A stretch of 64,000 nt of DNA, taken from NCBI GenBank assembly GCA_016214605.1, contig JACROD010000012.1, positions 57 to 64,056 of the forward strand, given 5' to 3'. The position numbers were made by a program, and so were the translations under genes. The notes under the pieces were generated by a model. The model saw only the letters and a program-made list of their open reading frames with translations. It searched no databases and was not told where the DNA came from. Below, piece by piece: positions 13,394 through 39,351 of the stretch (the first letter of the stretch is position 1; every line of letters starts with the position of its first letter). This DNA is from Candidatus Kaiserbacteria bacterium (lineage in GTDB: Bacteria > Patescibacteriota > Minisyncoccia > Phycocordibacterales > UBA2100).

Positions 13394-13618
13394 TTAAAGT
13401 TGCTCGATCTCTTTGAGGTCGTGATCGGGGATATAGAGGAGTGCGAAGCCGACGAAGATTCCGAGTACGGTCGTGATGAATGGGTTGCCGCCGAGGAGGT
13501 AGATATCTACCGCATCGAGCAGGTGCCAGATGCCGCGCCAGATGAGGACGAGCCCCAAGACGATCATAAAGTTTTGCTTGATATAACGAAACATTTCCGG
13601 ACGGTCTTTTTTGGTCAT
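13394..13618 (-). CDS. Small membrane protein (two predicted transmembrane helices)
   Basis: The 74 aa hydrophobic ORF has an ATG start. Its function is unknown. Confidence 0.35.
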   Translation of the reverse strand: MTKKDRPEMFRYIKQNFMIVLGLVLIWRGIWHLLDAVDIYLLGGNPFITTVLGIFVGFALLYIPDHDLKEIEQL

Positions 13619-13731
13619 ATATCGGTATTATAATCCACTCCCTAGCATACCGCGCTTCATAGCGTCTTTTTTGGTCCGATGATATATAATAATGGTGTTG
13701 GAGTAGAAATTTTAATATAAACATATTTTAT

Positions 13732-16700
13732 ATGAAGAGGCATAATTTTTCGACTTTCCTTGTTATCGCAATGGTCTTTTTTGTAAGTCTGTCCTCTGTT
13801 CGCGTAGCCAACGCAGCAATCGGAGATATTGAGCTTGTATCTCCGCCAGCCGGTAATATCTACACATCTACTGATGGCCCAATCTATATGCGGAATTCAG
13901 CGCAAGCTGTCAGTAACGGGTGTTCCAATTCTCAAGTAGCCACTATTTATCGGACAGACACTGGAGATAATACACCCATTGAAGCAGTTAATCTCGTACC
14001 CGGTGGATGCACGGGTGACACTTTCAGTACAGCGAATGTCTATTCAGGCACTGACGTGCGATCAATACCGGGAACATACGATGTGCTGGATATGCAATGC
14101 CCAGAATCATTCACAGAAAGTATGTGTCTTGCAGCACAGGGAGCCACCGTCCAATTCTCGTTCACTGTTGCTACAGCAGCTCCGGTAATTTCTCCAAATC
14201 TTGTGAATGCAACGATTGACACTACTTATTCAAGGGCTATCGGAGTGACCGGAGGCCTTGCGCCATTCACCTGGAGTATTGCTTCCGGATCATTACCTGA
14301 CGGACTGTCTTTAAATACTTCAACGGGGGTCATTTCAGGTACTCCGACAGTGACAGGGACTTCCGATTTTACGGTTCAGGTGATAGACAGCAATGCGGCG
14401 GTTGACACGCATTCGTTCTCTCTTTTGGTTAATTCCACGCCAGTTATTACTAGCACCAGTCTTGTCGGAGGGCACGTTAATACGTTGTATTACCAGACTC
14501 TGCAGAAATCTGGCGGCACACTACCTGTTACATGGAGTGTTATTTCCGGGTCACTGCCACCTGGAATGCAGCTTACTGGGGGTGTAGTGGCGGGAATTCC
14601 AACTCAGGTTGGGACCTCAACCTTTACGGTCCAACTCACTGACGCCAATGGAGCTACAGCTACACAAGCACTCGTTCTGGTTATTGACTACGTACCCCCT
14701 GTCATCATCACCCCCACACTTCATCCTGGTCAAGTTGATATTGCTTACCATTCTATTTATGGCTCTGTTTACGACACGGTCCGTGTCTCGGGTGGTAGTT
14801 TGCCATTAATATGGAGTATTATCTCCGGTAGTTTTCCCGATGGACTATCACTCGACCCTTCTAATGGTTTGGTGTCAGGAACCCCGACTACCGCAGGAAC
14901 ATACCACTTTACTGTGCAAGTCACCGACAACGACGTGGCGTCAGATACCCAAGAAGTCACATTGGATATTGATCCGTCCACAAGTGGAGAAGTGGTTCTT
15001 GTCTCGCCGCCTACGGGTAACCTTTATACAAGCACTAACGGTCCGATCTATATGCGAAACTCGGGAAGGGCCGTTAATAGTGACTGTGCGACCTACGGAA
15101 GTCCCATTGCACTAGCAACCATCTATCGAACAGATACCGGAGACAACACTCCTTCTGAGGAGGTTAATCTTGGGTGTACTGGAGAAGTTTTCAGTACGGC
15201 TAATGTATATTGGGGTTCCGATGTGCGTTTAACACCTGGAGCATACGATGTATTGGATAGGCAATGTCCGGAGTTTGTCACAGAACAGGATTGTCTTTTT
15301 GGTTCTTATGCAGCCTTGGGAGCCACAGTCCAATTCTCATTCACGGTAACATCAACGGTCGTTTCGCCGCCGGCCATTACCACCACTTCGCTGAGTGAGG
15401 CCACGATAGGAGTTGGGTACAATCACTCGCTCCATGTTACAGACGGATCTGCTCCGTATGTTTGGACAATCGCCTCAGGAAGTCTGCCCGCAGGCCTCAG
15501 CCTCAATGGATCAAATGGTGAAATATCCGGAGTACCAAGCATTGCTGGAAATTATGATTTTACTGTTCAAGTTACCGATACAAATTCACAAACAGCAATC
15601 CAGGATTTAACTCTTGTCGTAAATCCGGCGCCAGAAATTATTACTGCTTCAATTCCTGACGCCACTATAACAGGCAATTACTCACAGACCCTAGAGGTTG
15701 CCGGTGGCACCACTCCTCTTACTTGGAGCTTACCTGCAGGCAGTCTACCTTCAGGGCTAACCTTGAGTAGCTCTGGCATCCTATCGGGTGTGCCAGGCGA
15801 GACTGGTTCTTTTAATTTTACCGTACAAGCTACTGACGCAAACTCGGCTTTTGCCACCCAGACATTATCCTTGATGGTAAACCAAGCCCCGGCTGTCACG
15901 ACTACGAGTCTAGCAGTAGGCACCATAAATGCGGCCTATTCCCAGGCACTTGAAGTGTCAGACGGCTCTTTTCCGTTTATTTGGTCCGTCACATCCGGCA
16001 TCCTACCTGACGGATTAAGTCTCAATAGTTATACTGGTGAAATATTCGGTACGCCGACGACTGGAGGGAATCAGCTACTTACAGTGCAAGTGGTTGATAA
16101 CAACGGCGTTTCTGATTCAAAGTCATTATCCATAGCGGTTAATCCATCCGTTACCATTACCACAATCTCCAATCCTACCGACGCGACGATAAATGCCGCT
16201 TATTCGCAAATACTCACAGCCACTGGCGGTACCGTACCGCTCACATGGGGTCTCCTGAGTGGTAGTCTGCCACCTGGTCTCACTTTGAGTGAGACTGGTG
16301 TCTTGTCTGGCATTCCAACGGCCACAGGAGTTTTTAACTTTACCGCCCATGTTACGGATGCCAACAACTCTTCAGCGAATCAGGTGTTGTCTATTGTAGT
16401 GAATTCTGCACCGATCATCACTACCAGCTTCGTACCAGACGCGACGGCTAATGCCGTATATTCGCAGTCTCTGCAGGCAACAGGAGGCACTGCGCCCCTT
16501 ACATGGAGCTTACTGAGCGGATCCTTGCCCGCAGGTCTGGCACTTAATTCTGAGGGCACTATCGTGGGTGTCCCAACGACTACGGGTACCTATACCTTCA
16601 CTGTTCAGGTAACTGATATTTATAACATATCAGCCAACCAATCACTCACGATCCAAGTCCATCCGGCTCTCCATATCACCACAACGAACCTCCCCAATGG

Positions 16701-16939: not shown

Positions 16940-18772
16940 ATGAATCCTGCAGGTTTTTTGGTTGATACTCTCAAGGTTGCCAATGTCAGATTCTTCAATA
17001 GAAAATATCTAATCGCTCTTGCGCTGTTTATACTATTCATATCCTTATATATTTACACCGCGCCTCGCGGGGTGTTTGATGGAGATAGTGGGGAAATGAC
17101 AACCGCGGTCCATACACTCGGTCTGGCTCACAGTACCGGTTTTCCTCTCTATGTACTCTCGGCAAAACTGTTCACATTTGTATTTCCGTTTGGTGAATTT
17201 GCCTTTCGTCTCAATATCTATTCTGCACTGCTCACTGCTCTTTCGGTCGCCCTGCTCTATGTACTGATTCTTGAGATGGAGTTGTCCACTGTGGCGGCTT
17301 TTTTGGCGTCATCAACTTTTGGTCTGGGATTTTCGATTTGGCGCAATGCCGGTCAGGCAAGAATATATCCGCTTGCGCTGCTGTTCGTGATCCTTCTCGC
17401 TTTTATCTTCGTTCGATGGCAGAAGGACAAACATATCCGCTATTTGTATTGGTATGTACTTGTGTGGGGTATTTCTTTTGGTACGCATCTTCTCGTGTTG
17501 ACCATGATCTGGCCCTTGCTCATCATGCTTTGGCAAAAGAGAGACTATCTAAGGACGCATGTAACGGTGCTCGGCAAAGCGGCATTGCTATTTTTCTTAC
17601 CTTTTGTGCAGTACATCTATATACCGATTGCGAATGCGAGGCACATGACCACCTCATGGGGAGATACTGGTGGGTTGATGGGATTCCTGTATTACATTAC
17701 CCAGAGACAGTACGTATATAAAATGATTGCACGAGATTGGACCGGCATAGCTCTTTTTTTCAAGCAGATGGGAGGTGTGATTTTCTCGGAGCTTGGGGCG
17801 ATTCTCTTTATGATTGGTATAGGGGGACTCATATATTTCTACAAGGAAAATAAACCGCTATGCTCTGCGCTAGTATTGGCAAGTCTCTCCAATATTGTCA
17901 TCATGTTCTCCTATGGCAATGAGGGGGATATCGGTTTCCTGTATCGCTATCTCTTTATCGTGCACCTGACAGTAGCAATCGGCATTGCCTATAGTGTCAC
18001 TGCCTTAGGGCGCGTTCGTAATGCCAAATGGTTTCTCGTGGCGTTTTTGATACTCCTTATATTTATTGAGCTTCGGACAAACTACGCTCGAAATAATCTG
18101 CGCGCAAACTTCATCGTATCCGATATTGCCCAGAACATTTTGGAGACGGTCGGACCAAACTCGATCCTTTTTACTACACTCGATGCGCCCCACGGGGCTA
18201 TCACGTATCTACAGAGCGAACGTTATCGGACCGATGTGATCGCCGTGATATCAGATCAGTTGGGATTTGATTGGTATGTGAAGGATCTCATATGGAAATA
18301 TCCCGATACATTCAGTACCGGATTGCTTACAATACAAGGAGACTATCTAAGAAAAAATAGTTTAAGAATAGAGGAAATAGTGCAGAATAATCTCGACAAG
18401 CGAGATATGTATGCAATGTTTGCCAACAACAAATTGCCCGACAACAGGACTCTTGCAGATGACTTTACTATCACCCCGATCGGTGTCGTGAATAAAATTA
18501 CAGCTAAAGGTGACGATAGTAAGATGATTTTGGCAAAAAATATCGATATCTGGAACAATTATCAACTGAGAGGTGTTTTCTCGGACACTTATGACAAAAC
18601 GATGGAATATCCTTTGAGGATCCTATACAGGGATGCACTCTATAATCTCGGGGTTTCTTACTTCAAGAATGGTTTTACGTCTCAAGCTGTAGACGCTTTG
18701 CAATACTCGCTCAAGATCAACTACACTCCCTATGCACAGAACGAGTTGGATTTTATAGAAAAACAGCGCTAA
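16940..18772 (+). CDS. GT-C fold glycosyltransferase of the DUF2723/TMEM260 (protein O-mannosyltransferase-like) family with C-terminal TPR-like repeats
   Basis: The N-terminal half is polytopic membrane (about 10 TM helices) and begins ...TAPRGVFDGDSGEMTTAVHTLGLAHSTGFPLY, an Asp-containing first-loop motif typical of GT-C enzymes. The C-terminal half is soluble with TPR-like sequence YNLGVSYFKNG...ALQYSLKINY. The gene is AT-rich. Confidence 0.65.
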   Translation: MNPAGFLVDTLKVANVRFFNRKYLIALALFILFISLYIYTAPRGVFDGDSGEMTTAVHTLGLAHSTGFPLYVLSAKLFTFVFPFGEFAFRLNIYSALLTALSVALLYVLILEMELSTVAAFLASSTFGLGFSIWRNAGQARIYPLALLFVILLAFIFVRWQKDKHIRYLYWYVLVWGISFGTHLLVLTMIWPLLIMLWQKRDYLRTHVTVLGKAALLFFLPFVQYIYIPIANARHMTTSWGDTGGLMGFLYYITQRQYVYKMIARDWTGIALFFKQMGGVIFSELGAILFMIGIGGLIYFYKENKPLCSALVLASLSNIVIMFSYGNEGDIGFLYRYLFIVHLTVAIGIAYSVTALGRVRNAKWFLVAFLILLIFIELRTNYARNNLRANFIVSDIAQNILETVGPNSILFTTLDAPHGAITYLQSERYRTDVIAVISDQLGFDWYVKDLIWKYPDTFSTGLLTIQGDYLRKNSLRIEEIVQNNLDKRDMYAMFANNKLPDNRTLADDFTITPIGVVNKITAKGDDSKMILAKNIDIWNNYQLRGVFSDTYDKTMEYPLRILYRDALYNLGVSYFKNGFTSQAVDALQYSLKINYTPYAQNELDFIEKQR

Positions 18773-18778
18773 TCGATT

Positions 18779-19489
18779 ATGCTCGACCTCTGTATACCGA
18801 CCTACAACGAAGCAGATATCATCGCAGAATCGATATGCACGATAGAGAAAACACTACAGAGTACATCTCTTGAATGGCGGATTATCCTTGCGGACAATGG
18901 TTCCACAGACGGTACGATCGACATTGTGGAAGCACTCCTGTTACCGCAAACGCATATCCTCGCTGTTCCTCAGCGGGGTAAGGGAGCGGCGATTGTCGCA
19001 GTGACTCAGATGTCAAACGCGGAAATATTCGGTTTTATCGACGCGGATCTCTCCGTCGATCCGCAAGAGATTGAGGTATTTGTCCGTCATATCGAACATG
19101 GTGATGCCGACATTGTTGTCGGTTCGCGACTGATCAATACGAGGCTTGTGCAAAGGAATTTTCTACGTACGTTCTCGTCGCGATTATTCAATATTCTGCG
19201 CCGTGTGATACTCGGTATTCGAGTCGCAGACAGTCAATGCGGATTTAAGATGATGAATGCGCGAGGTCGAAAGATACTTACGCAATGCACAGAAACGGGA
19301 TGGTTCATGGACATAGAATTTTTATATCGCGCCGAACTTACAGGTCTTGTTATACAAGAAATACCTGTGCACTGGGAAGAGCATCGCTTTGCAGGACACA
19401 AGAGTAAGCTCCGTATAGTATCTGATGGGTGGGAAGCGGTGCTTGCCATGACAAGAATACGTCGTTCAGCTAGAAAGTTCACGGTTTGA
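18779..19489 (+). CDS. GT2-family glycosyltransferase (polyprenyl-phosphate mannose/glucose synthase-like)
   Basis: LCIPTYNEADII...ILADNGSTDGT...FIDADLSVDP...VVGSR are GT-A DXD/Rossmann motifs. The start is 7 nt after the GT-C gene stop. Confidence 0.8.
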   Translation: MLDLCIPTYNEADIIAESICTIEKTLQSTSLEWRIILADNGSTDGTIDIVEALLLPQTHILAVPQRGKGAAIVAVTQMSNAEIFGFIDADLSVDPQEIEVFVRHIEHGDADIVVGSRLINTRLVQRNFLRTFSSRLFNILRRVILGIRVADSQCGFKMMNARGRKILTQCTETGWFMDIEFLYRAELTGLVIQEIPVHWEEHRFAGHKSKLRIVSDGWEAVLAMTRIRRSARKFTV

Positions 19490-21279: not shown

Positions 21280-21687
21280 ATGGGAATCGAAAGTGGCAAG
21301 CAGTCAGCGGCCATAACGCCGCAAGAAGCTATGGAGAGAGATGCGCTCCGTGCGACCATAGAAGATGAAAAAAAGAAAGAAAGGGAACATGAATTGTTCA
21401 AAGAAGCTGTTTTGGAGAAAGTAAACGGTCGTCTGGCTGACTTTGCTGAACAAAACTCCATTAAATATGAGTCGTTCCCACTGGGTGAGTGGGTTTCTCT
21501 GGATCAAGAAAATCAGGTGTCTTTTCATTGCAAGGAAAATTCTGATTGGGAGAAAATGTCATCATTTTTGGATTCTGAAGTCGCTACTTTCTCAGAAATG
21601 TTGGTGACTCAAGAGGGTGGACAGGTCATTTTGTATCCAGAAAAAGACCCCGCTCATCGGACCTACAAGATTACACTCAAGGGGTGA
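21280..21687 (+). CDS. Hypothetical protein (AT-rich gene immediately upstream of leuS)
   Basis: A 135 aa ORF with an ATG start. Its GC is well below the flanking genes. No recognisable motifs were found. Confidence 0.4.
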   Translation: MGIESGKQSAAITPQEAMERDALRATIEDEKKKEREHELFKEAVLEKVNGRLADFAEQNSIKYESFPLGEWVSLDQENQVSFHCKENSDWEKMSSFLDSEVATFSEMLVTQEGGQVILYPEKDPAHRTYKITLKG

Positions 21688-21706
21688 TTTGTGATATCGT
21701 ATTCCA

Positions 21707-24604
21707 ATGCGGCAGTACGATCACAAAAAGATAGAGAAAAGGTGGCAAAAAGAATGGGAAAAGAAAAAAGCCCATGTCGTCAAGGACAAGGTCGCCGGCA
21801 AGAAAAATGAGTATCTGCTCGTCGAATTCGCATATCCCTCGGGCAATCTCCATGTAGGACACTGGTATGCTTTTGCGGTCCCGGATATCTACGGGCGCTT
21901 CCGTCGCGCACAGGGGCGCAATGTCTTGTACCCGATGGGATTTGATGCTTTTGGTCTGCCTGCCGAAAATGCCGCGATCAAAAACAAGCTCAATCCGCGC
22001 ACGTGGACGTATGCCAATATCAAACACATGAAAGGTCAGCTCGCCTCGATGGGGGCGTCTTTCGATTGGAGTAGGGAAGTGATCACGTGCGATCCGGATT
22101 ATTATCGTTGGACACAGTGGCAGTTTCTCCAGTTTTACAAAAAAGGTCTCGCATACCAAAAAGAGACCGCCGCCAACTGGTGCCCCAACGACAAGACCGT
22201 GCTCGCCAACGAGCAAGTGGTCAATGGCCGCTGTGAGCGATGCGGCGCCGAAGTAGAACAGCGCCAGATGGTTCAGTGGAATCTCAAGATCACCGACTAC
22301 GCCGACCGCCTCATCGACGATCTCACCAAGCTCGATTGGCCGGAGCAGATCAAGGAGAGTCAGCGCAATTGGATCGGTCGGAGTGAGGGGGCCCAAATTG
22401 ATTTTTTCCTTAATTTCGAGAATCAAATATTTAATGATCGTATTGGACCCACCGGCAAGAAGGCTCATGTCACAGCGTTTACCACACGGCCCGATACACT
22501 CTATGGTGCCACGTATGTGGTGCTTGCACCGGAGCAGTCATGGCTCACGCGTGCTGTTTACGAAGATCAGATGCTTAAAAATAATGATGAGGTAAAAGCA
22601 TATATCGAAAAGACGAAGAAAAGAAGCGATCTTGAGCGCCAAGAGAATAAGGAAAAGAGCGGTATCAGACTCGAAGGTGTTAGTGCGATCAATCCCGCCA
22701 CCGGAGAGAAGATCCCGGTGTTTGTAGCGGATTATGTTCTCGGTAGCTATGGTACCGGGGTTGTCATGGCCGTGCCAGCGCACGACGAGCGCGATTTTGA
22801 ATTTGCCAAGAAGTTTGATCTGCCGATCAAGGCGGTGATTGAACCAATGTTCACTGCAAAAAACGGAGAAGATGCAGTTAAGGCAGAACTTCCATTAAAC
22901 AGGCGCGAAGCGGTTGTTTGTGTAGTTAAGCATTGGTCAGAAGATAAATATCTTTGTCTAAAGTGGAAAAAAGTAGCCTGGAGTGGCTTTGTCACCGGTG
23001 GCATTGACGGTAGTGAATCGAAAGAAGAAGCCGGTAAAAGAGAAATTCTTGAAGAAACTGGATACAAAAATGTCAGATTCATAAAAGAACTTGGTCAGGT
23101 TGTTAATGTGCAGTTTTACCACGTCCTAAAAAAAGAAAATCGCTGGGCACGATTCCAAGGATTACTCTTTGAATTAACTGATAGTGAGCAAGAACAAATA
23201 AGTGAAGAAGAGAAAGATATACATGATATTCACTGGCTTAATCGCGATGAAGTCGAAAAATTTCTTTCAGTTGGGGATATGAAGCTTATTTGGGATCGCG
23301 CAATGGGAAAAGAATCCGCATATACAGGTTCAGGCATCCTTGTAAGTTCTAGTCAATACGACGGACTTGCAAATCAAGAAGCCAAAAAATCGATCACCGA
23401 AAAGTTTGGCCGTGCCAAGAAGACCTACCGCCTGCGCGATTGGGGAGTATCGCGTCAGCGGTATTGGGGTGTGCCGATACCGATCATTCACTGTGATGAT
23501 TGTGGTGCGGTCCCGGTGCCCGACAAGGATTTGCCGGTCAAGCTTCCCGAGGTCAAAGACTATCTTCCCGCAGGAGATGGCAAATCGCCGCTCGCCAAGG
23601 CGACCAAATGGGTCAATGTAAAATGCCCCCAGTGCAAAGGCAAGGCGATGCGCGAGACGGATACCCTTGATACGTTTGTCGATTCGTCGTGGTATTTTCT
23701 GCGCTACACCGACCCTAAAAACAAGAAGCAATTCGCCAACAAGAAAAAGCAGGCGACCTGGATGCCGATCGATCTCTACTCGGGTGGTGCCGAGCACACC
23801 ACGATGCACTTGCTCTATAGTCGCTTTTGGCACAAGGCGCTCTATGATCTCAAGCTCGTCGGCGAGAAAGAGCCGTATACGCGCCGCATGAACCGCGGAC
23901 TCATCCTCGGTCCCGACGGCGCCAAGATGAGCAAATCAAAAGGCAATGTCATCGACCCGGATGCGGTGGTGGCCCAGCTGGGAGCTGATACGGTGCGCCT
24001 CTATCTCGCATTCATCGGTCCGTACAATGAAGCGGGTAGCTACCCATGGAATCCTGATTCGATTGTCGGCGTGCGCCGATTTCTCGAGCGCGTCTGGCGA
24101 CTAGGACAGTTAACAGTTGACAGTAAACAGTTGACAGCAGATGCGGAAGTCGAAAGATTGTTACATAAGACGATCAAGAAGGTGGGGGAGGATTGCGCGG
24201 AGATGAAATTCAACACCGCCATCTCGCAGATGATGATCTTCGTGAATACCGCTGAATCAAAAGGCATCACCCGCGCGCAGTATGCGACATTCGTGCGGCT
24301 CCTCGCGCCATTTGCACCACATATCACCGAAGAACTCTGGCATGAAATAGGTAATAAAAAGTCGGTCCATCTGGAGCCGTGGCCCAAGTACGACAAGAAG
24401 AAGCTCGTCTCCGACACGGTTACGATCATGATCCAGATCAACGGCAAGCTCAGGGGTGAGGTGCGGGTCGCCGCCGATGCCGACAAGGATACGGTCGAAT
24501 CGGCTGCCAAGCGCGCGGTCGCCGATCGTCTCACGGACCAGACCATTCAACGCACGATAGTTGTCCCTGGCCGTCTCGTGAATTTTGTCGTATTGACAAG
24601 GTAG
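21707..24604 (+). CDS. leuS: Leucyl-tRNA synthetase carrying an in-frame Nudix-hydrolase-like insertion
   Basis: HVGH (HIGH), CP1/editing-region landmarks (TTRPDTLYGATYVVLAPE, GTGVVMAVPAHDERDFEFA), RLRDWGVSRQRYWG, KMSKS, and anticodon/C-terminal domains are all collinear with bacterial LeuRS. An extra ~150-160 aa segment lies between ...LPIKAVIEP and GSGILVSSSQYDG... Confidence 0.95.
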   Translation: MRQYDHKKIEKRWQKEWEKKKAHVVKDKVAGKKNEYLLVEFAYPSGNLHVGHWYAFAVPDIYGRFRRAQGRNVLYPMGFDAFGLPAENAAIKNKLNPRTWTYANIKHMKGQLASMGASFDWSREVITCDPDYYRWTQWQFLQFYKKGLAYQKETAANWCPNDKTVLANEQVVNGRCERCGAEVEQRQMVQWNLKITDYADRLIDDLTKLDWPEQIKESQRNWIGRSEGAQIDFFLNFENQIFNDRIGPTGKKAHVTAFTTRPDTLYGATYVVLAPEQSWLTRAVYEDQMLKNNDEVKAYIEKTKKRSDLERQENKEKSGIRLEGVSAINPATGEKIPVFVADYVLGSYGTGVVMAVPAHDERDFEFAKKFDLPIKAVIEPMFTAKNGEDAVKAELPLNRREAVVCVVKHWSEDKYLCLKWKKVAWSGFVTGGIDGSESKEEAGKREILEETGYKNVRFIKELGQVVNVQFYHVLKKENRWARFQGLLFELTDSEQEQISEEEKDIHDIHWLNRDEVEKFLSVGDMKLIWDRAMGKESAYTGSGILVSSSQYDGLANQEAKKSITEKFGRAKKTYRLRDWGVSRQRYWGVPIPIIHCDDCGAVPVPDKDLPVKLPEVKDYLPAGDGKSPLAKATKWVNVKCPQCKGKAMRETDTLDTFVDSSWYFLRYTDPKNKKQFANKKKQATWMPIDLYSGGAEHTTMHLLYSRFWHKALYDLKLVGEKEPYTRRMNRGLILGPDGAKMSKSKGNVIDPDAVVAQLGADTVRLYLAFIGPYNEAGSYPWNPDSIVGVRRFLERVWRLGQLTVDSKQLTADAEVERLLHKTIKKVGEDCAEMKFNTAISQMMIFVNTAESKGITRAQYATFVRLLAPFAPHITEELWHEIGNKKSVHLEPWPKYDKKKLVSDTVTIMIQINGKLRGEVRVAADADKDTVESAAKRAVADRLTDQTIQRTIVVPGRLVNFVVLTR
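22847..23325 (+). other. Nudix hydrolase domain inserted in-frame into leuS; AT-rich relative to the rest of the gene
   Basis: The encoded segment contains GGIDGSESKEEAGKREILEETGY, a perfect Nudix box G-x5-E-x7-REUxEExGU. The DNA here (for example aaaaacggagaagatgcagttaaggcagaacttccattaaac) is far more AT-rich than flanking leuS sequence. The segment starts 1140 nt (380 codons) from the leuS ATG, so it is in frame. Confidence 0.7.
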
Positions 24605-25137: not shown

Positions 25138-25310
25138 GGACAGGAGGGCTCACGCTTCGGTGCGGGCTCTTTTCTTTTTATTTCTTAAACACCCGCAGGC
25201 CGTTTGCGCCATCTTACCATAGTGTAGTCAACCACTCCGATCCTATTGCGTAGTTCGTTAGTATTACAGGCTACCACTTCAATCTCATTCTCGTAAGAAT
25301 CCAAACAAAA

Positions 25311-25349
25311 TAATATGCTATAATCACACGGCCGTGTATAAATAGCATA
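25311..25349 (+). promoter_or_regulatory. Promoter/operator block upstream of the PaaX-like regulator gene (copy 1 of a duplicated motif)
   Basis: The block is aatatgcTATAATcaCACGGCCGTGtataaatagcata. It holds a perfect -10 hexamer abutting a 12 bp palindrome ACACGGCCGTGT. It is about 85% identical over 39 nt to the block at 26022-26059. Confidence 0.55.
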
Positions 25350-25384
25350 CACGATTTTTATACATTCATACATCCGAATCAAGT

Positions 25385-25960
25385 ATGGGAGACATGGAAC
25401 GACGGGGCAAGAAACGTGCGCAAAAAAGAGACTTGCAGCGTGCTCTGTTGAGCGCTGTTGCCTTTGCGGGACTACTCGCACTCGCCGCCGTGCCCTCGAA
25501 TCTTCCCCTGGCTCTGGCCAGACTCGGCATGCTTCCTACAGGGCCCAAGGATGCGGGGACGGTCAACCGCGCGAGGAATCGACTCATCAAGAAAGGATTG
25601 TTGACGCGCACGAAAGACGGTTTCCTGCGTTTGACCCCGGCAGGCACACGTGCCATGCGCACGATCGAATTACAGGACTCCTTGCTCAAGAATTCCCGGC
25701 GATGGGACGGACGATGGCGTGTGCTCATCTTCGATATTCCCGAAAAGTACCGGAGGACGCGTGAGAAACTCAGGATGACGATCCTTTCCGTGGGCTTTGT
25801 CGGTTTGCAGGGCAGTGTGTGGGTCTTCCCGCACGATTGCGAAGACTTCGTGGCACTTCTCAAAGCCGATCTGCATATCGGAAACAATCTCTTGTACATG
25901 ATCGTCGATGAAATGGAAGCCGACGGTCCACTACGCAAACATTTCGGTTTAGATCAGTGA
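25385..25960 (+). CDS. PaaX-family transcriptional regulator (short form: winged helix plus PaaX middle domain)
   Basis: ...NRLIKKGLLTRTKDGFLRLTPAG is winged-helix-like. RWDGRWRVLIFDIPEKYRRTREKLRMTILSVGFVGLQGSVWVFP aligns with E. coli PaaX 'AWDGKWLLLLSEGLDKSTLADVKKQLIWQGFGALAPSLMASP'. Confidence 0.6.
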   Translation: MGDMERRGKKRAQKRDLQRALLSAVAFAGLLALAAVPSNLPLALARLGMLPTGPKDAGTVNRARNRLIKKGLLTRTKDGFLRLTPAGTRAMRTIELQDSLLKNSRRWDGRWRVLIFDIPEKYRRTREKLRMTILSVGFVGLQGSVWVFPHDCEDFVALLKADLHIGNNLLYMIVDEMEADGPLRKHFGLDQ

Positions 25961-26021
25961 GAAACAGGGAAGAGAGTTGGAAAGGGGCTTGATCATGTTG
26001 TGGAGTTAGGGATTGTTTGAA

Positions 26022-26059
26022 TATGCTATTTTCATACGGCCGTGTAAAGATAGTATAAG
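26022..26059 (+). promoter_or_regulatory. Promoter/operator block (copy 2) upstream of the hypothetical gene at 26158
   Basis: The block is aatatgctattttCATACGGCCGTGtaaagatagtata, with an ACGGCCGT palindrome core. It is near-identical to the block at 25311-25349. Confidence 0.55.
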
Positions 26060-26157
26060 GTTGTTTTGGGAACACATGGGAACACATGATGTTGATGTGC
26101 AGGAGAGAAGATGCTATCTTTTCCGTGGAAGGGTAGTTTGCAGGGGGGGGATGTGTT

Positions 26158-26562
26158 ATGTCCAAAGCCAAGATAGCCCTCAATACAGGGATCGCAGTTG
26201 TCTACGATGGTGACGATGTATACGGCCTAAAAATAGGGAAACCCGAGCCGGAAAACATCAGTGGGATGAACATTGCGGTGTTGTTGCAAATGGGAGGACC
26301 GTATATCAATCTTCTTGCGGGGCCGTACCCTTATAAAAAAGTGTACGACATCATGTCTCTGGAATGTCCGGCCTTTCGTATCGTCAAGAAGGTGTTGGAT
26401 GCGCGTGGGCTCGCCGACGAATATAAAATCGAAAGATCATTGTGTAAAAGTGATGTCATGGTACTTGCTGCAGAGGCGAGTAGGGAGATACTCGCGCTTG
26501 CCTTGGAAAGGCTTTGCGACAAAGAATACAGGCCTAGGGTCCTAGCAAATGAACGTGATTAA
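26158..26562 (+). CDS. Hypothetical protein, probable target of the PaaX-like regulator
   Basis: A 134 aa ORF with an ATG start, preceded by the duplicated operator block. No recognisable motifs were found. Confidence 0.45.
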   Translation: MSKAKIALNTGIAVVYDGDDVYGLKIGKPEPENISGMNIAVLLQMGGPYINLLAGPYPYKKVYDIMSLECPAFRIVKKVLDARGLADEYKIERSLCKSDVMVLAAEASREILALALERLCDKEYRPRVLANERD

Positions 26563-26608
26563 TTTTAATAAGTTCCGGGAGGCGACCCTCGGGACTTATT
26601 TCTTTGAA

Positions 26609-35600: not shown

Positions 35601-35952
35601 CTATACCGAGAAGCTTCCATCGCCGGAGAAACGCGATACCATCTCTCTCGAAGAGATCGCCTACAACGGCGCGACCACTACACTCTCCGACACCTCGGTC
35701 TCATACAAATGGCGCACCGACAAAAACGGCCTGTACAAGCTTTTCGCCGCGCATATCAAGACAAACGCAACGAGCACTGAATCCCACTATCGTCCCAAGA
35801 AAGACCAGACTGTCGTCATGACTAAGCCACATGATTTGGATGATACAGACGAAGATGACGATGTGGACAGTCGATCCGTTAAACAGAGATTACCTGGTAT
35901 GATTATTCCGTACTTGAGAACGGAGGAGGGGAGAGTGATTATCGGGTATTAG
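32698..35952 (+). CDS. Large secreted protein with a lipase/PGAP1-like alpha/beta-hydrolase domain
   Basis: The signal peptide is MRGKHYLPILIAMAIITFASSVHA. The central VTIIAHSNGGLVGKAL is an AHSxG nucleophile elbow, as in lipases/LCAT/PGAP1-like hydrolases. Long N- and C-terminal beta-rich regions flank it. Confidence 0.6.
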   Translation: MRGKHYLPILIAMAIITFASSVHADTPCNVPDPVTYGSFFTPYEADEYQQGLLTQHFQNQTEYPGYPPFKIRWSFFDDECQFANQLIFVTPVSFPLDITDWSIRFTSSTHFDVWDDEHETILTSQDIDQYPPYTRIEFTPLLGDNISTQSYLRSRTLKIQEDGHTPILTGTLPKDPACPSMSVYGNIFDPAYEHAEYIDGLLRVHVRFTTMTSSGGFIRTKTLSVPASCDRDSQIPPTSWKGVTPPPRMKYFSFRMTSPTHWVMWNDEADTPVYCDMSRTDPYADFDRGCEGDLEPSASYTSFYMDIGSGSVATLITTPFPPVERGCTENCNSNVLFLPGIEASRLYRPQVVGDPDKQLWEPGNNIDVQELYLNPDGSSVRPDVYTKEGDVIDEKVFPVLGGNIYKSFIDRMNTLESDGKINDWEAASYDWRLSLDDILQYGHQVDDRIYYSGDSRATTTPYIIQELRRLATTSRTGKVTIIAHSNGGLVGKALTEALGPEAPQLIDRIIFIAVPQAGTPMALPADLHGYKQAYLGGLVLSQHTARTFAQHAPMAYNLLPSAPYFTYVDDPVVSFDPRLTDWITRYGSVIHSAPSLHTFLTDTYGRVDPQTGDINTPIQMSDTLLTVAENTHTELDSWTPPTGVQLVQIAGWGVPTTVSGITYKPHGAGVTYEADTTIDGDGTVVVPSALWTSTETGAVNYWVDLKDYNKLLNRVTNLRLKTDHSNILEVSPLLDLISSIIQHSTSTVTQYISTTNPVAEITDHQLHFALHSPLTLDMYDDQGRHTGVSTTTGEVEEQIPGTYYAQFGETKHIFSDATTTMHIMMEGYDTGTFTFNVDELEGDTRIASTTFQDIPTTENTTVTLDIQSDITTLSSMSIDVNSDGAVDHMLVPKLDGIVTLDTTPPEIQITFATSTNALRFIGIDDMGTTTVSATMTYPVLKKHQREARGIATTTVTVRDLAGNTTVLVYTEKLPSPEKRDTISLEEIAYNGATTTLSDTSVSYKWRTDKNGLYKLFAAHIKTNATSTESHYRPKKDQTVVMTKPHDLDDTDEDDDVDSRSVKQRLPGMIIPYLRTEEGRVIIGY

Positions 35953-35963
35953 ATATTCTTCAT

Positions 35964-36362
35964 ATGATTAGCAAAAAAACAACACTGTTTATTGGTATCT
36001 TTGGAGGAATAATATTTTTGTTGGCACTGTATGCAACACAGATCGGTTTGTGTGCGGTTGTGAATCAATCCTGTTCGGAATTCTTCGACCCTATTACTGA
36101 AAATTTGATACCCTTTCTCCCTCTCTTCATCCTTTCCCTTATCACCTTCAAAATGCGCGATGAAGTCTACCGGACATGGTTCCGTTTCGCTCGATGGTGG
36201 ATCCCGTTTTCCATCATGCTCATCTTCATTTCTCCCGAATACAGTGTTGATCAAATGTTTCGTATTGAAAAGGGAAGTGTGGCGCTCCTTACATCGGCGC
36301 TCTTCTCCACCATCTCCCTCATCATTGTCACGTGGAAATACTCCGTTACGCGGAAGAAATAA
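35964..36362 (+). CDS. Small polytopic membrane protein
   Basis: A 132 aa ORF with about four hydrophobic helices. It is AT-rich and has an ATG start. Confidence 0.4.
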   Translation: MISKKTTLFIGIFGGIIFLLALYATQIGLCAVVNQSCSEFFDPITENLIPFLPLFILSLITFKMRDEVYRTWFRFARWWIPFSIMLIFISPEYSVDQMFRIEKGSVALLTSALFSTISLIIVTWKYSVTRKK

Positions 36363-36365
36363 TAT

Positions 36366-36968
36366 ATGCTCGTCGTCGATGTCGAAGCCTCAGGGACAGA
36401 ATCTTGGAAGCACTCCATCGTCTCTGTCGGTGCGCTCGATCTGATGCATCCGGAGAATCGTTTTTACGAGGAATGCCGCATATGGGATGGGGCACACATC
36501 ATGGATGAGGCGCTCAAGGTCAACGGTTTCACCCGCGAGCAGATCCTCGATCCCCAGAAGCAGACCGAGGGCGACCTCGCGCACGCTTTTCTCGATTGGA
36601 GCAAAGATCTAGCGGATCGCACGCTTGCCGGGCAAAACGTCTCTTTTGATCGGGATTTTCTCAAGGCTGCCAGTGCACGCGCCGGCCACACCGAATGGAC
36701 GTTTGCTTACCGTACGATCGACACTCACACACTCTGCTGGATGCACATGATCAATCACGGGATCCAGCCGCCTATAGATCCCAAACATCACCGATCCGCG
36801 CTCAATCTCGATGCGGTCATGAATTATTGCGGCATACCCGATGAGCCCGAGCCGCACAATGCGCTTACCGGCGCACTCTCGCACGCCGAGGTGATTTCGC
36901 GTCTCCTCTACGACAAAAAGCTCCTACCCGAGTTTGAACAGTTTCAGATCCCGTGGAAGTCTCACTAA
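36366..36968 (+). CDS. DEDD-family 3'-5' exonuclease (DnaQ-like domain)
   Basis: LVVDVEASGT (Exo I D-x-E), NVSFDRDFL (Exo II) and HNALTGALSHAEV (Exo III His) are present. Confidence 0.7.
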   Translation: MLVVDVEASGTESWKHSIVSVGALDLMHPENRFYEECRIWDGAHIMDEALKVNGFTREQILDPQKQTEGDLAHAFLDWSKDLADRTLAGQNVSFDRDFLKAASARAGHTEWTFAYRTIDTHTLCWMHMINHGIQPPIDPKHHRSALNLDAVMNYCGIPDEPEPHNALTGALSHAEVISRLLYDKKLLPEFEQFQIPWKSH

Positions 36969-38330: not shown

Positions 38331-38617
38331 TTATTTTGGATCGGGCTTTTCATTGGCTCGTCGGGCAGACTACCTTCGATCTGTACGCCGTTGGCTTTTT
38401 CGAATTCTTCGATCTGACGGAGGATCATCCGGCCGAGCCGTTTTGCGAATACGAGATTTGTGGCAAAGACATCCGAATGCTGGCCCGAACGAAATGCGAG
38501 ATAAAACGCGCCTTCTCGGATCTGGAGCGAGAACATCTCCGGATAGGTGCGGGCTCCGGTGTGGGTCGTCTCAAAAGGATTTTGGTCTTGATTGGGCATG
38601 GTCCAAGTATACCTCAA
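38327..38617 (-). CDS. Hypothetical small ORF (TTG start in ORF track; internal ATG at 38597-38599)
   Basis: It lies directly downstream of the 245 aa gene and overlaps its stop. The coding status is uncertain. Confidence 0.25.
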   Translation of the reverse strand: MRYTWTMPNQDQNPFETTHTGARTYPEMFSLQIREGAFYLAFRSGQHSDVFATNLVFAKRLGRMILRQIEEFEKANGVQIEGSLPDEPMKSPIQNK

Positions 38618-39351
38618 GATCCCCGGTTCAGGAGAATCGCTTTTGCAGGCCTTAGTAATTCTCCTACTGCAGAGTTGTATTCTCTTACAGAAGCGTTTCG
38701 ATTCACACTAGGCGAATCTTTCCATGTATTATAAAGTGTTCGAATCCCCGGGAATGTTCCGTTGCCAGGATAGAGACCTTGAACTATAAAATATACTGCG
38801 AATTGCTCCACTATCACCACGAATATTGGAATAATAGATTCCATAGCTTTTTCATGAGTCGCTTTTTGTTCGATAACCCTGAGAGCGAATTCCTCCATAA
38901 GATTTCCAAGAGTTGTTATATCCTGTCGAAGTTCAAGGCTATTTGTAGCGAGATATATTCTTGCCTGTTCCCTCGCAACATCGGTGTGAGTTCGTAAAAA
39001 AGTGGCTCGATCAAAGCTCTCCATTCTGGTGGAGAGGAATGTATAAGAGCCATTGGTGCCATGTGTTGCAACGATTGCACTTTGAATTTTCGAATGGAGT
39101 GGAATGATGTCATCGCGAGTGATATCTAATAATGCGCTGACGGCATCTATGCGATCTTTCCTCTTTTGATAAACATATTGATACACGGCAACAAAAGCTA
39201 ATGCGGCCAAAACTACTTGAGAGGCATATGACAAGTCTTCTAGGAGCGGTTCAAGATGATAGTAGACGGTCATCATCAGTGCAATGAAGGCCCCGATGCC
39301 AAAACCTACGAGAGTAAACACCCATTCCCTGCTTTTTATTAAAGTTTGCAT
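38614..39351 (-). CDS. AT-rich hypothetical membrane protein (two N-terminal TM helices plus a soluble domain)
   Basis: A 245 aa ORF with an ATG start at 39349-39351. GC is well below that of its neighbours (murG/gltX and others). Confidence 0.5.
   Translation of the reverse strand: MQTLIKSREWVFTLVGFGIGAFIALMMTVYYHLEPLLEDLSYASQVVLAALAFVAVYQYVYQKRKDRIDAVSALLDITRDDIIPLHSKIQSAIVATHGTNGSYTFLSTRMESFDRATFLRTHTDVAREQARIYLATNSLELRQDITTLGNLMEEFALRVIEQKATHEKAMESIIPIFVVIVEQFAVYFIVQGLYPGNGTFPGIRTLYNTWKDSPSVNRNASVREYNSAVGELLRPAKAILLNRGS

Follow-up and report, generated by a model that had tools for sequence, protein, structure and literature searches.

A complete Nudix protein nested in the editing domain of leucyl-tRNA synthetase and exchanged between lineages of candidate phyla radiation bacteria

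Few enzymes of translation have been studied as thoroughly as leucyl-tRNA synthetase (LeuRS), whose CP1 editing domain is a validated drug target. The enzymes of Escherichia coli and Thermus also carry a leucine-specific domain ahead of the KMSKS signature, but this domain is not universal. Synthetases with an accessory domain are a known kind of protein; the fusion described here is unusual in its evolutionary behaviour. We analysed a 64,000-nt stretch of DNA from Candidatus Kaiserbacteria bacterium (assembly GCA_016214605.1, contig JACROD010000012.1, positions 57 to 64,056; hereafter the window), in which the leuS gene contains a Nudix hydrolase module in frame within the CP1-encoding region.

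In a 2026 survey of 2.7 million domains, the LeuRS editing domain (PF13603) is listed among the insertion-exclusive modules: its 213 events include "zero instances of host function" (PMC13114784). A CP1 domain with a nested Nudix domain is a counter-example to this listing. Searches of the full-text literature turned up no report of a Nudix domain inside LeuRS or any synthetase of the candidate phyla radiation (CPR), and AARS Online makes no mention of Nudix. The sequences themselves can be found in public databases, where automatic annotation calls them, for example, 'class I tRNA ligase family protein', 'NUDIX domain-containing protein' or 'alpha/beta fold hydrolase'.

Results

All coordinates given below are positions in the window, and amino acid (aa) numbers refer to its leuS open reading frame (ORF). 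A first-pass annotation had proposed that a Nudix domain is inserted in frame into this LeuRS, and profile search, fold prediction and alignment bore this out. With the whole protein as query, the Pfam family PF00293 scored 44.1 bits at aa 402-517, and with the originally proposed segment alone it scored 47.1 bits (gathering score 21.1). In the alignment with Thermus thermophilus LeuRS, aa 1-379 of the window protein correspond to residues 1-363 and aa 536-739 to residues 374-583. About 156 window residues thus stand in place of a 10-residue Thermus loop (364-373), close to the extra 150-160 aa estimated at first. The insert begins at P380-M381 (PMFTAK) and finishes with ...AMGK at aa 535, where ESAYTG follows. 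It interrupts the match to PF13603 between model positions ~146 and ~152. Since PF13603 is split on both sides of the insert, the Nudix domain is nested inside CP1, and the protein displays three levels of nesting, with Nudix inside CP1 and CP1 inside the Rossmann catalytic domain. The alignment places the insertion point within the editing domain and not at the leucine-specific domain. The Nudix box, GGIDGSESKEEAGKREILEETGY, matches the consensus G-x5-E-x7-R-E-U-x-E-E-x-G-U at every position and is indeed the textbook box that it had been taken for. The features are listed here, with A1 denoting an alignment of 46 LeuRS sequences (the window and relatives) and GC3 the GC content at third codon positions.

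21707..24604, + strand: leuS, bacterial-type leucyl-tRNA synthetase, 965 aa (uninterrupted ORF, TIGR00396, synteny)
21851..21862, + strand: HIGH signature (HVGH, aa 49-52) of the class I catalytic site (H49, G51 and H52 invariant in A1)
22364..22843, + strand: N-terminal four fifths of the CP1 editing domain, aa 220-379 (PF13603 positions 1-141, 174 bits)
22830..23395, + strand: low-GC replaced patch, consisting of the Nudix module and the variable C-terminal CP1 strand (GC3, blastn breakpoints, nucleotide identity)
22844..23311, + strand: Nudix module at 'site B' (aa 380-535), a whole Nudix protein set into a surface loop of CP1 (PF00293, AlphaFold2, Foldseek)
22997..23065, + strand: Nudix box, aa 431-453, with the metal-binding residues E446, E449 and E450 (sequence, family conservation)
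23312..23404, + strand: C-terminal strand of CP1, aa 536-566, closing the domain after the insert (PF13603 positions 152-183 of 185)
23924..23938, + strand: KMSKS signature, aa 740-744 (K740, M741, S742, K743 and S744 invariant in A1)

Modelled alone with AlphaFold2, the module adopted an alpha/beta/alpha Nudix fold, in which the box lies on a loop-helix-loop, with a predicted local distance difference test score (pLDDT) of 92.1 and a predicted template modelling score (pTM) of 0.86. In the model of full-length LeuRS (mean pLDDT 83.2, pTM 0.62), the module portion had pLDDT values of 90-96. Foldseek returned 488 matches in the PDB with E <= 1e-3, and all 50 of the top-listed ones were Nudix-family proteins. 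The best match was the uncharacterised Enterococcus faecalis protein 2AZW, followed by the Aquifex diadenosine tetraphosphate (Ap4A) hydrolase 3I7U (template modelling (TM) score ~0.8, root-mean-square deviation 2.5 Å); RppH, mycobacterial MutT1 and Rv2985, CT771 and NUDT2 were further top folds. Identity between the module and these fold neighbours is 15-22%, and sequence profiles point weakly to the same Ap4A-hydrolase/RppH neighbourhood. End to end, and including its N-terminal extension, the module could be aligned with the standalone CPR Nudix proteins P0002-P0011, which are 158-190 aa long. The embedded part is therefore a whole protein. Family-specific motifs of the module are KHWSEDKY upstream of the Nudix box, K-x2-NR and a C-terminal W.

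The window ORF scored 995.1 bits against the equivalog model for bacterial LeuRS (TIGR00396 leuS_bact, cut-off 548.4) and is 100% identical to the NCBI protein P0161, 'class I tRNA ligase family protein [Candidatus Kaiserbacteria bacterium]'. Pfam recognised a catalytic, an editing (PF13603) and an anticodon-binding domain. Within CP1, the T-rich motif TTRPDT (aa 259-264) and the motif AHDERD (aa 358-363, with D360 and D363) are invariant in A1 and align with those of T. thermophilus LeuRS. The isolated 71-aa fragment that follows the insert matched PF13603 with 19.5 bits (E = 7e-4) and aligns from T. thermophilus residue 374 onward. The motifs of both the synthetic and the editing site are intact. 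The leucine-specific domain is absent from the window protein, as aa 739 aligns to Thermus residues 583 and 636 with ~52 residues missing. Its relatives in A1 lack this domain (Thermus ~584-635) as well, the gap falling at window positions 23921-23926 (aa 739-740), before KMSKS. The gene order DUF5671, leuS, cysS, CorA, S41 peptidase and L9 is common to the window and its relatives. Because the same order surrounds an insert-free allele, the window gene is the resident housekeeping leuS.

A scan of one genome per GTDB species revealed 248 stretches related to the module, the best 80 of which are referred to as loci L001-L080, and a scan of metagenomes added 245 more, of which again the best 80 loci were examined. 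The same insertion was found throughout: the module lies in frame inside leuS in 80 of the 80 best GTDB loci and in 80 of the 80 best metagenome loci. As the loci were collected by similarity to the window's own module, this result (160/160) describes the host specificity of the module and not its prevalence among CPR LeuRS. A HMMER search of 1.84 billion representatives gave 135 clusters at E <= 1e-30, mostly long LeuRS, and PF00293 was present in 115 of the 120 LeuRS clusters nearest to the window. A word-indexed protein search yielded 11 matches and was too insensitive to gauge frequency. The Nudix family was seen almost only in CPR (Patescibacteria) bacteria, and no host gene other than leuS bears the module in 0.9 Mb of CPR DNA. 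Nudix-in-LeuRS is the rule in Paceibacteria-type CPR bacteria. The fusion, initially judged unusual, is so by comparison with characterised LeuRS but not within this group.

The module has two insertion sites, one on each side of the CP1 core: site A follows aa ~206 and site B follows aa 379. The arrangements B, A, A+B, AA and AA+B were observed, with one to three copies per gene and proteins of up to 1542 aa. The module family also occurs as free-standing genes: the non-LeuRS module proteins that were examined (10 of 16, among 149 representatives) were standalone or tandem Nudix proteins or combined a CP1 fragment with Nudix. The standalone homologues P0010 and P0003 are not encoded near leuS.

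In the window, the module belongs to a patch of foreign base composition. The GC content of 22847-23325, put at roughly 40% in the first-pass annotation, is 0.388, while the window has a mean of 0.530 (standard deviation (sd) 0.045, z = -3.15). This tract is the lowest among 133 non-overlapping windows, and 0.17% of sliding windows are as low. The remainder of leuS had been placed in the upper-50s %, too high given the 52.6% that we found, and the tract of low GC, though real, is slightly wider than first drawn, reaching from about nt 22830 to 23395. GC3 falls from 0.62 in the remaining leuS to 0.29 in the module. The low-GC3 tract covers about aa 375 to 560, with values of 0.15-0.36 inside and 0.45-0.84 outside, and the module together with ~30 adjoining codons makes up the foreign patch, which is flanked by the conserved motifs AVPAHDERDFEFAKKF and YRLRDWGVSRQRYWG. 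Blastn homology to four relatives ends at nt 22827-22839 and restarts at nt 23318-23397. Compared with the insert-free allele, the window has 550 nt where the allele has 68 nt. Nucleotide identity to the closest allele, P0167, is 0.91-0.94 in the N-terminal catalytic body (aa 76-225), 0.60-0.81 in the CP1 core (aa 226-375), 0.42-0.53 at aa 376-550 and 0.81-0.97 from aa 551 onward, with local dips at aa 801-825 and at the C-terminal end.

Across 97 modules, module GC follows host GC (r = 0.84), and the mean GC3 difference between module and host (dGC3) is -0.06 (sd 0.08). With a dGC3 of -0.33 the window is the most extreme of all 97, and the GC3 of its module is the same as that of the L001 module. 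Modules well below host GC3 were also found in other metagenome-assembled genomes (MAGs), namely L015 (-0.24), L059 (-0.23), L007 (-0.22) and L043 (-0.20). Breakpoints, composition and the mismatch between module and host therefore identify a foreign patch: it is a recent import, probably by inter-lineage recombination.

Several other origins of the patch were considered and rejected. Its low GC does not stem from amino-acid composition, as the drop is greatest at third codon positions and most other modules match host GC3. A transposon-type insertion would leave terminal inverted repeats or a target-site duplication; at the borders we found neither, only short repeats at chance level. Two exact direct repeats of 10-11 nt fall in host codons (FAKKF / GRAKK), and the peptide motifs occur in the insert-free P0180, too. 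The ORF contains no Hint or intein Pfam match and no intein motifs, which rejects an intein. A phage origin was rejected because viral sequences gave no specific match to the module: among 2.9 million viral contigs there was one weak match to the Nudix box, and PHROGs gave generic Nudix matches only. Conserved motifs bracketing a block without transposon ends are the pattern expected of allelic patch replacement by homologous recombination. Divergent leuS alleles would thus have recombined, with the strongly conserved flanking motifs as anchors, and the patch would have entered in this way and not by transposition or an intein-like mechanism.

At the upstream border, AAGGCGGTGAT (window 22829-22849) matches the extended Shine-Dalgarno consensus in 10 of 11 positions, 7 nt upstream of the ATG of Met381. 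This likeness is probably due to chance, because the bases encode the conserved host residues K-A-V-I.

The history of the module differs from that of its host. Across 2,664 pairs, identity in the module showed no correlation with identity in the core (r = -0.02), whereas in controls the N- and C-terminal halves of the LeuRS core gave r = 0.74 and two catalytic-domain segments r = 0.88. The window protein and P0167 are 84% identical in the N-terminal segment, 89% in the C-terminal segment and 32% in the module. Corresponding values are 84%, 82% and 45% for P0163 and 82%, 81% and 46% for P0162. At the site-B loop, P0180 and P0245 have no insert and P0172 and P0201 have short unrelated fillers. 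The module of L001, a Nomurabacteria locus with ~41% GC, is 75% identical to that of the window, with a LeuRS core of 53% identity. The window grouped with L001 in 100% of bootstrap replicates of the module tree and in 0% of those of the body tree; for the window and P0167 the values were 0% and 99%, respectively. The module tree intermingles copies from site A, from site B and from standalone genes. A single ancient fusion followed by vertical descent was rejected on account of these interleaved sites, the lack of correlation and the bootstrap-supported incongruence. Modules are exchanged between lineages like cassettes, and their phylogeny is uncoupled from that of the host gene. We hold the anatomy and the horizontal replacement of the window module, as described, with high confidence. 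L001 is not the donor, since synonymous sites between its module and that of the window are saturated.

The CP1 editing core, too, appears to have a history separate from that of the catalytic body. Among the leuS genes of L001-L080, pairwise identities correlate well within CP1 (r = 0.80), compared with only 0.05-0.11 between CP1 and the catalytic domain. CP1 identity is bimodal: L025, L041, L023 and L058 have CP1 domains only ~34% identical to the rest, with catalytic bodies that are ~85% identical. In the window, CP1 (22382-22831, aa 226-375) shows a nucleotide identity to the near relative P0167 of only 60-81%, while most other parts of leuS, the replaced patch excepted, reach 85-97%; the GC3 of CP1 is lower as well.

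The module is under strong purifying selection. Among 107 family members, the box residues E16 (106/107), E19 (104/107), E20 (107/107) and G22 (107/107) are nearly or fully conserved, and the ratio of nonsynonymous to synonymous substitution rates (dN/dS) is 0.01-0.17 wherever dS is unsaturated. There are two subtypes of the box, the canonical one and a covarying form with Gln for Glu at position 7 and Met, Ala or Thr for Arg at position 15. This variant occurs in about a quarter of the members (L036, L037, L044, L056, L065 and others, and the standalone P0002/P0003) and keeps the three metal-binding glutamates. Both subtypes were found at sites A and B and in standalone genes. Given the near-invariant catalytic glutamates and the low dN/dS, the domain is probably an active enzyme, a Mg2+/Mn2+-dependent pyrophosphohydrolase.

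Its substrate would most likely be a dinucleoside polyphosphate or a 5'-polyphosphate nucleotide (Ap4A/ApnA or RppH-like). With such a substrate, the Nudix module would act next to LeuRS and clear adenylate-derived by-products such as Ap4A. An Ap4A-type substrate is compatible with the nearest folds of the predicted structure, those of Aquifex Ap4A hydrolase, RppH and NUDT2. A subfamily motif from the Bessman laboratory, a conserved Tyr ~16-18 residues after the Nudix box, reportedly marks Ap4A/ApnA hydrolases. The window module has F and Y at 17 and 18 residues past the box (QFYH), in an aromatic column that is at least 80% conserved, and no subfamily HMM (hidden Markov model) scored above its cut-off. 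The RppH equivalogs NF001936 and NF001938 were not reached, with 30.1 and 28.9 bits at cut-offs of 118 and 116. Because subfamily scores lie so far below their cut-offs and the fold neighbours are so distant, the substrate call is weak, and we assign the Ap4A/ApnA class only tentatively. For an aminoacyl-adenylate as substrate, which the first-pass annotation had also suggested, we found no support.

Besides the Nudix module, other whole domains are inserted in frame at three further positions in the leuS genes of L001-L080. An alpha/beta serine hydrolase (PF06821) is inserted at the window-equivalent positions aa ~237-255 and ~599, and a HAD phosphatase at ~aa 643. Examples of inserts are L028 aa 232-425, L001 aa 255-405, L022 aa 580-790, L036 aa 985-1207, L060 aa 781-928 and L051 aa 416-547. 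The serine hydrolase is present in the closest GTDB relatives of the window (L028, L035, L049) and absent from the window LeuRS. L001, the locus with the closest module, carries a DUF559/Vsr-like endonuclease domain inside leuS (103.6 bits), and two further inserted segments in leuS of relatives have no Pfam match.

Free-standing genes of ~275-390 aa in L168, L170 and L171 (P0128, P0129, P0144, P0152, P0153, P0160; contig GC 0.25-0.27) encode a small CP1-like domain, reduced to a minimum and degenerate in part, in which Nudix is again nested at this same loop. Their neighbours are unrelated genes, for a 2-hydroxyacid dehydrogenase and a radical SAM enzyme. This arrangement could mean that CP1 and the module form a unit, either in their work or in their spread. 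A fragmentary second instance of the fusion, P0001, comes from an ENA contig of 671 nt and ends in ...VSYTHLTLPT, with both insert junctions upstream of that end. This terminus, which we take to be a translated Nextera adapter, marks the contig end as an artefact. The public titles of L002-L004, L008, L009, L016, L021 and others read 'uncultured Gammaproteobacteria', 'Nanoarchaeota' or 'Candidatus Saccharibacteria'; on contigs with a Paceibacteria-type leuS, such labels are probably mis-assigned MAG taxonomies.

The window holds further tracts of distinct composition or content around leuS. Upstream, between the DUF5671 gene and leuS, lies an ORF of 135 aa (21280-21687), which had been noted as AT-rich and does sit in a low-GC tract (21330-21847, GC 0.427). 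It has no Pfam, PHROG or PADLOC match and no homologue in the loci compared. As leuS of L082 starts 14 nt past the DUF5671 gene, this ORF looks like a separate lineage-specific insertion. Downstream, a block of ~1.3 kb between leuS and cysS (window ~25256-26599) is missing from the closest relatives. It comprises the ORF 25385-25960, which matches the PaaX central Cas2-like domain PF20803 with 70.9 bits and gave weak Cas2 matches in PADLOC, and a 134-aa ORF (26158-26562) with no family assigned. Elsewhere, tracts with a GC content of about 0.42-0.43 (mean 0.53) are found at 13514-14067, 18043-18972, 35778-36367 and 38568-39291.

Discussion

Taken as a whole, with its anatomy, history, activity and substrate class, the description of the module as a horizontally replaced, active pyrophosphohydrolase acting on Ap4A-type or 5'-polyphosphate substrates is in our judgement somewhat more likely than not. 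A number of points weigh against it. On the functional side, no NCBIfam equivalog, be it RppH, ADP-compound hydrolase or another Nudix subfamily, came near its cut-off (27-30 versus 116-118 bits), and even the fold neighbours share no more than about a fifth of their residues with the module. The full-length AlphaFold2 model reached a pTM of 0.62 only. Aminoacylation does not need the module, because the close relatives P0180 and P0245 have none, and with the standalone homologues located away from leuS there is no independent genomic link between Nudix and LeuRS. On the historical side, the foreign patch is known from one assembly and was not seen twice (P0161: 1 member, 1 contig). The trees are neighbour-joining trees with simple distances, computed for loci that were ascertained via the window's own module. 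Synonymous sites towards L001 are saturated, and the metagenome scan yielded no closer donor (best 70% identity), so that L001 with ~75% stays nearest.

Several alternative explanations concern the reason why the module is kept. It could be a passenger or selfish insertion, of use neither to the cell nor to LeuRS, which persists because a loop in an essential, highly conserved gene tolerates it. Precise loss would be rare and recombination via the conserved flanks would spread it, following the logic of an intein without splicing. The polymorphism of near relatives in presence and lineage of the module, its uncoupled phylogeny, the several sites with tandem copies and the unrelated domains in leuS of relatives, such as the endonuclease domain of L001, all fit this explanation. 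However, a functionless passenger should lose both its metal-binding glutamates, which are near-invariant in 107 copies, and its low dN/dS; free-standing genes of the family imply a cellular function of its own, and neither intein motifs nor Hint-domain matches nor transposon ends were found. We thus consider a mere passenger improbable. Nor do we give much credence to in-cis detoxification or immunity, in which the module would destroy LeuRS-aimed nucleotide inhibitors (aminoacyl-adenylate mimics) or a toxic or signalling nucleotide. The inserted alpha/beta-hydrolase and HAD domains would act likewise, and the rapid turnover of cassettes would reflect an arms race. This would agree with the observation that every recurrent insert with an assignable fold is a small-molecule hydrolase (Nudix, PF06821 serine hydrolase, HAD), with the specific association with LeuRS, with the hypervariability of site B among close relatives and with the NCBIfam entry for an isoleucyl-tRNA synthetase (IleRS) with an embedded GNAT domain (NF040702). 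There is also a precedent of hydrolases that confer resistance to peptide-nucleotide antibiotics targeting aminoacyl-tRNA synthetases, and homologues of these occur in Parcubacteria (PMC7157772). Yet selection within lineages is purifying, not diversifying, PADLOC gave no defence-system match (sole match 14.3 bits, E = 0.006), and no toxin or antibiotic gene cluster was seen nearby. Moreover, we know of no Nudix enzyme able to cleave the phosphoramidate or sulfamoyl bonds in antibiotics of this kind.

Alternatively, the module might act on RNA ends, as an RppH- or Dcp2-like pyrophosphohydrolase that CP1 positions at the tRNA acceptor end. Its target would then be the 5' end of tRNA-Leu, for example a 5'-triphosphate or an Np4N or NAD cap. 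The best NCBIfam matches are indeed RppH models (E = 4e-7, below cut-off), and searches by sequence and by fold also brought up RppH, AvrM14 and Dcp2. CP1, which handles the acceptor end, is flanked by the two sites of insertion, and the free-standing mini-CP1 + Nudix genes suggest that the two domains work as a pair. But scores are far under the RppH cut-offs (30 versus 118 bits) and standalone family members exist without any CP1, so we regard an RNA-end enzyme as quite unlikely. The least probable explanation, in our view a very remote one, concerns the patch alone: an assembler might have joined in the low-GC block from a co-occurring low-GC CPR genome, in which case the transfer would be artefactual and Nudix-in-LeuRS still real. 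The contig is a single observation, and on both sides the block ends in motifs that are conserved from lineage to lineage, places at which an assembler can cross over. Such a chimera would, however, require two crossovers ~550 nt apart that preserve the reading frame, and long exact k-mers common to a donor with a GC3 of 0.3 and a host with 0.62 would be scarce, even in conserved motifs. Furthermore, MAGs of other studies also have modules far below host GC3 (L015, L059, L007, L043), and near relatives hold mutually unrelated modules at site B, so exchange does happen.

A wider interpretation, which we put forward as speculative and rather unlikely, is that the CP1 region of LeuRS in Paceibacteria-type CPR bacteria is a recombination hot spot for interchangeable active hydrolase cassettes that work in cis with the synthetase and are kept diverse by selection. 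The cassettes would be Nudix at two sites, the PF06821 serine hydrolase at two sites and HAD. They might provide immunity against LeuRS-directed nucleotide toxins or process by-products at the tRNA acceptor end, and the free-standing mini-CP1 + Nudix genes would be the detached form of an 'armed', modular synthetase, which would be a hitherto undescribed kind.

Whatever the function of the module, CP1 itself is routinely a host across a major bacterial radiation, and a single polypeptide can hold other hydrolases in addition to as many as three copies of Nudix. Should the module be active and coupled to LeuRS, it would form a direct physical link between aminoacylation and the turnover of nucleotides (Ap4A or RNA caps), and the roles of synthetase-made Ap4A could be tested in a natural fusion. 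The exchange of cassettes in an essential gene is a tractable case of whole-domain movement by homologous recombination in tiny genomes. Even if the module were merely a housekeeping enzyme in a tolerant loop, it would be a clear and datable instance of horizontal transfer at the level of domains.

Compared with bacterial LeuRS of known structure (T. thermophilus 1H3N/2V0C, E. coli 3ZGZ/4AQ7), the window protein is alike in its catalytic core, its HIGH, KMSKS and editing motifs, and the position of CP1 after ZN-1, and the anticodon-binding and C-terminal domains align as well. Unlike the Thermus enzyme, it has a Nudix domain of 156 aa for the CP1 loop 364-373 and no leucine-specific domain. 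With the Nudix hydrolases in its neighbourhood (aq_158 3I7U, E. coli RppH 4S2X, Rv2985, CT771, NUDT2 and 2AZW) the module shares the alpha/beta/alpha fold, with TM scores of up to 0.8, and the canonical box; it differs in being embedded, in scoring below the NCBIfam subfamily cut-offs and in its family-specific motifs. The entry NF040702, 'isoleucine--tRNA ligase, N-acetyltransferase domain-containing', which we compared by its library name only, likewise denotes an enzyme domain within a class Ia synthetase, but host, inserted fold and chemistry differ from those of the window. Like inteins and homing endonucleases, the module sits in frame at a conserved site of an essential gene, is distributed sporadically and spreads independently of the host gene. 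Unlike them, it lacks Hint and splicing motifs, is a conserved enzyme, presumably retained in the mature protein, and apparently moves by ordinary homologous recombination. The pbp genes of Streptococcus and Neisseria are mosaics generated by homologous recombination between lineages, and with them the window leuS shares a sharply bounded foreign block in an otherwise vertically inherited essential gene. In leuS, however, a whole accessory domain is exchanged, in place of the point differences in a drug-binding site that distinguish pbp mosaics.

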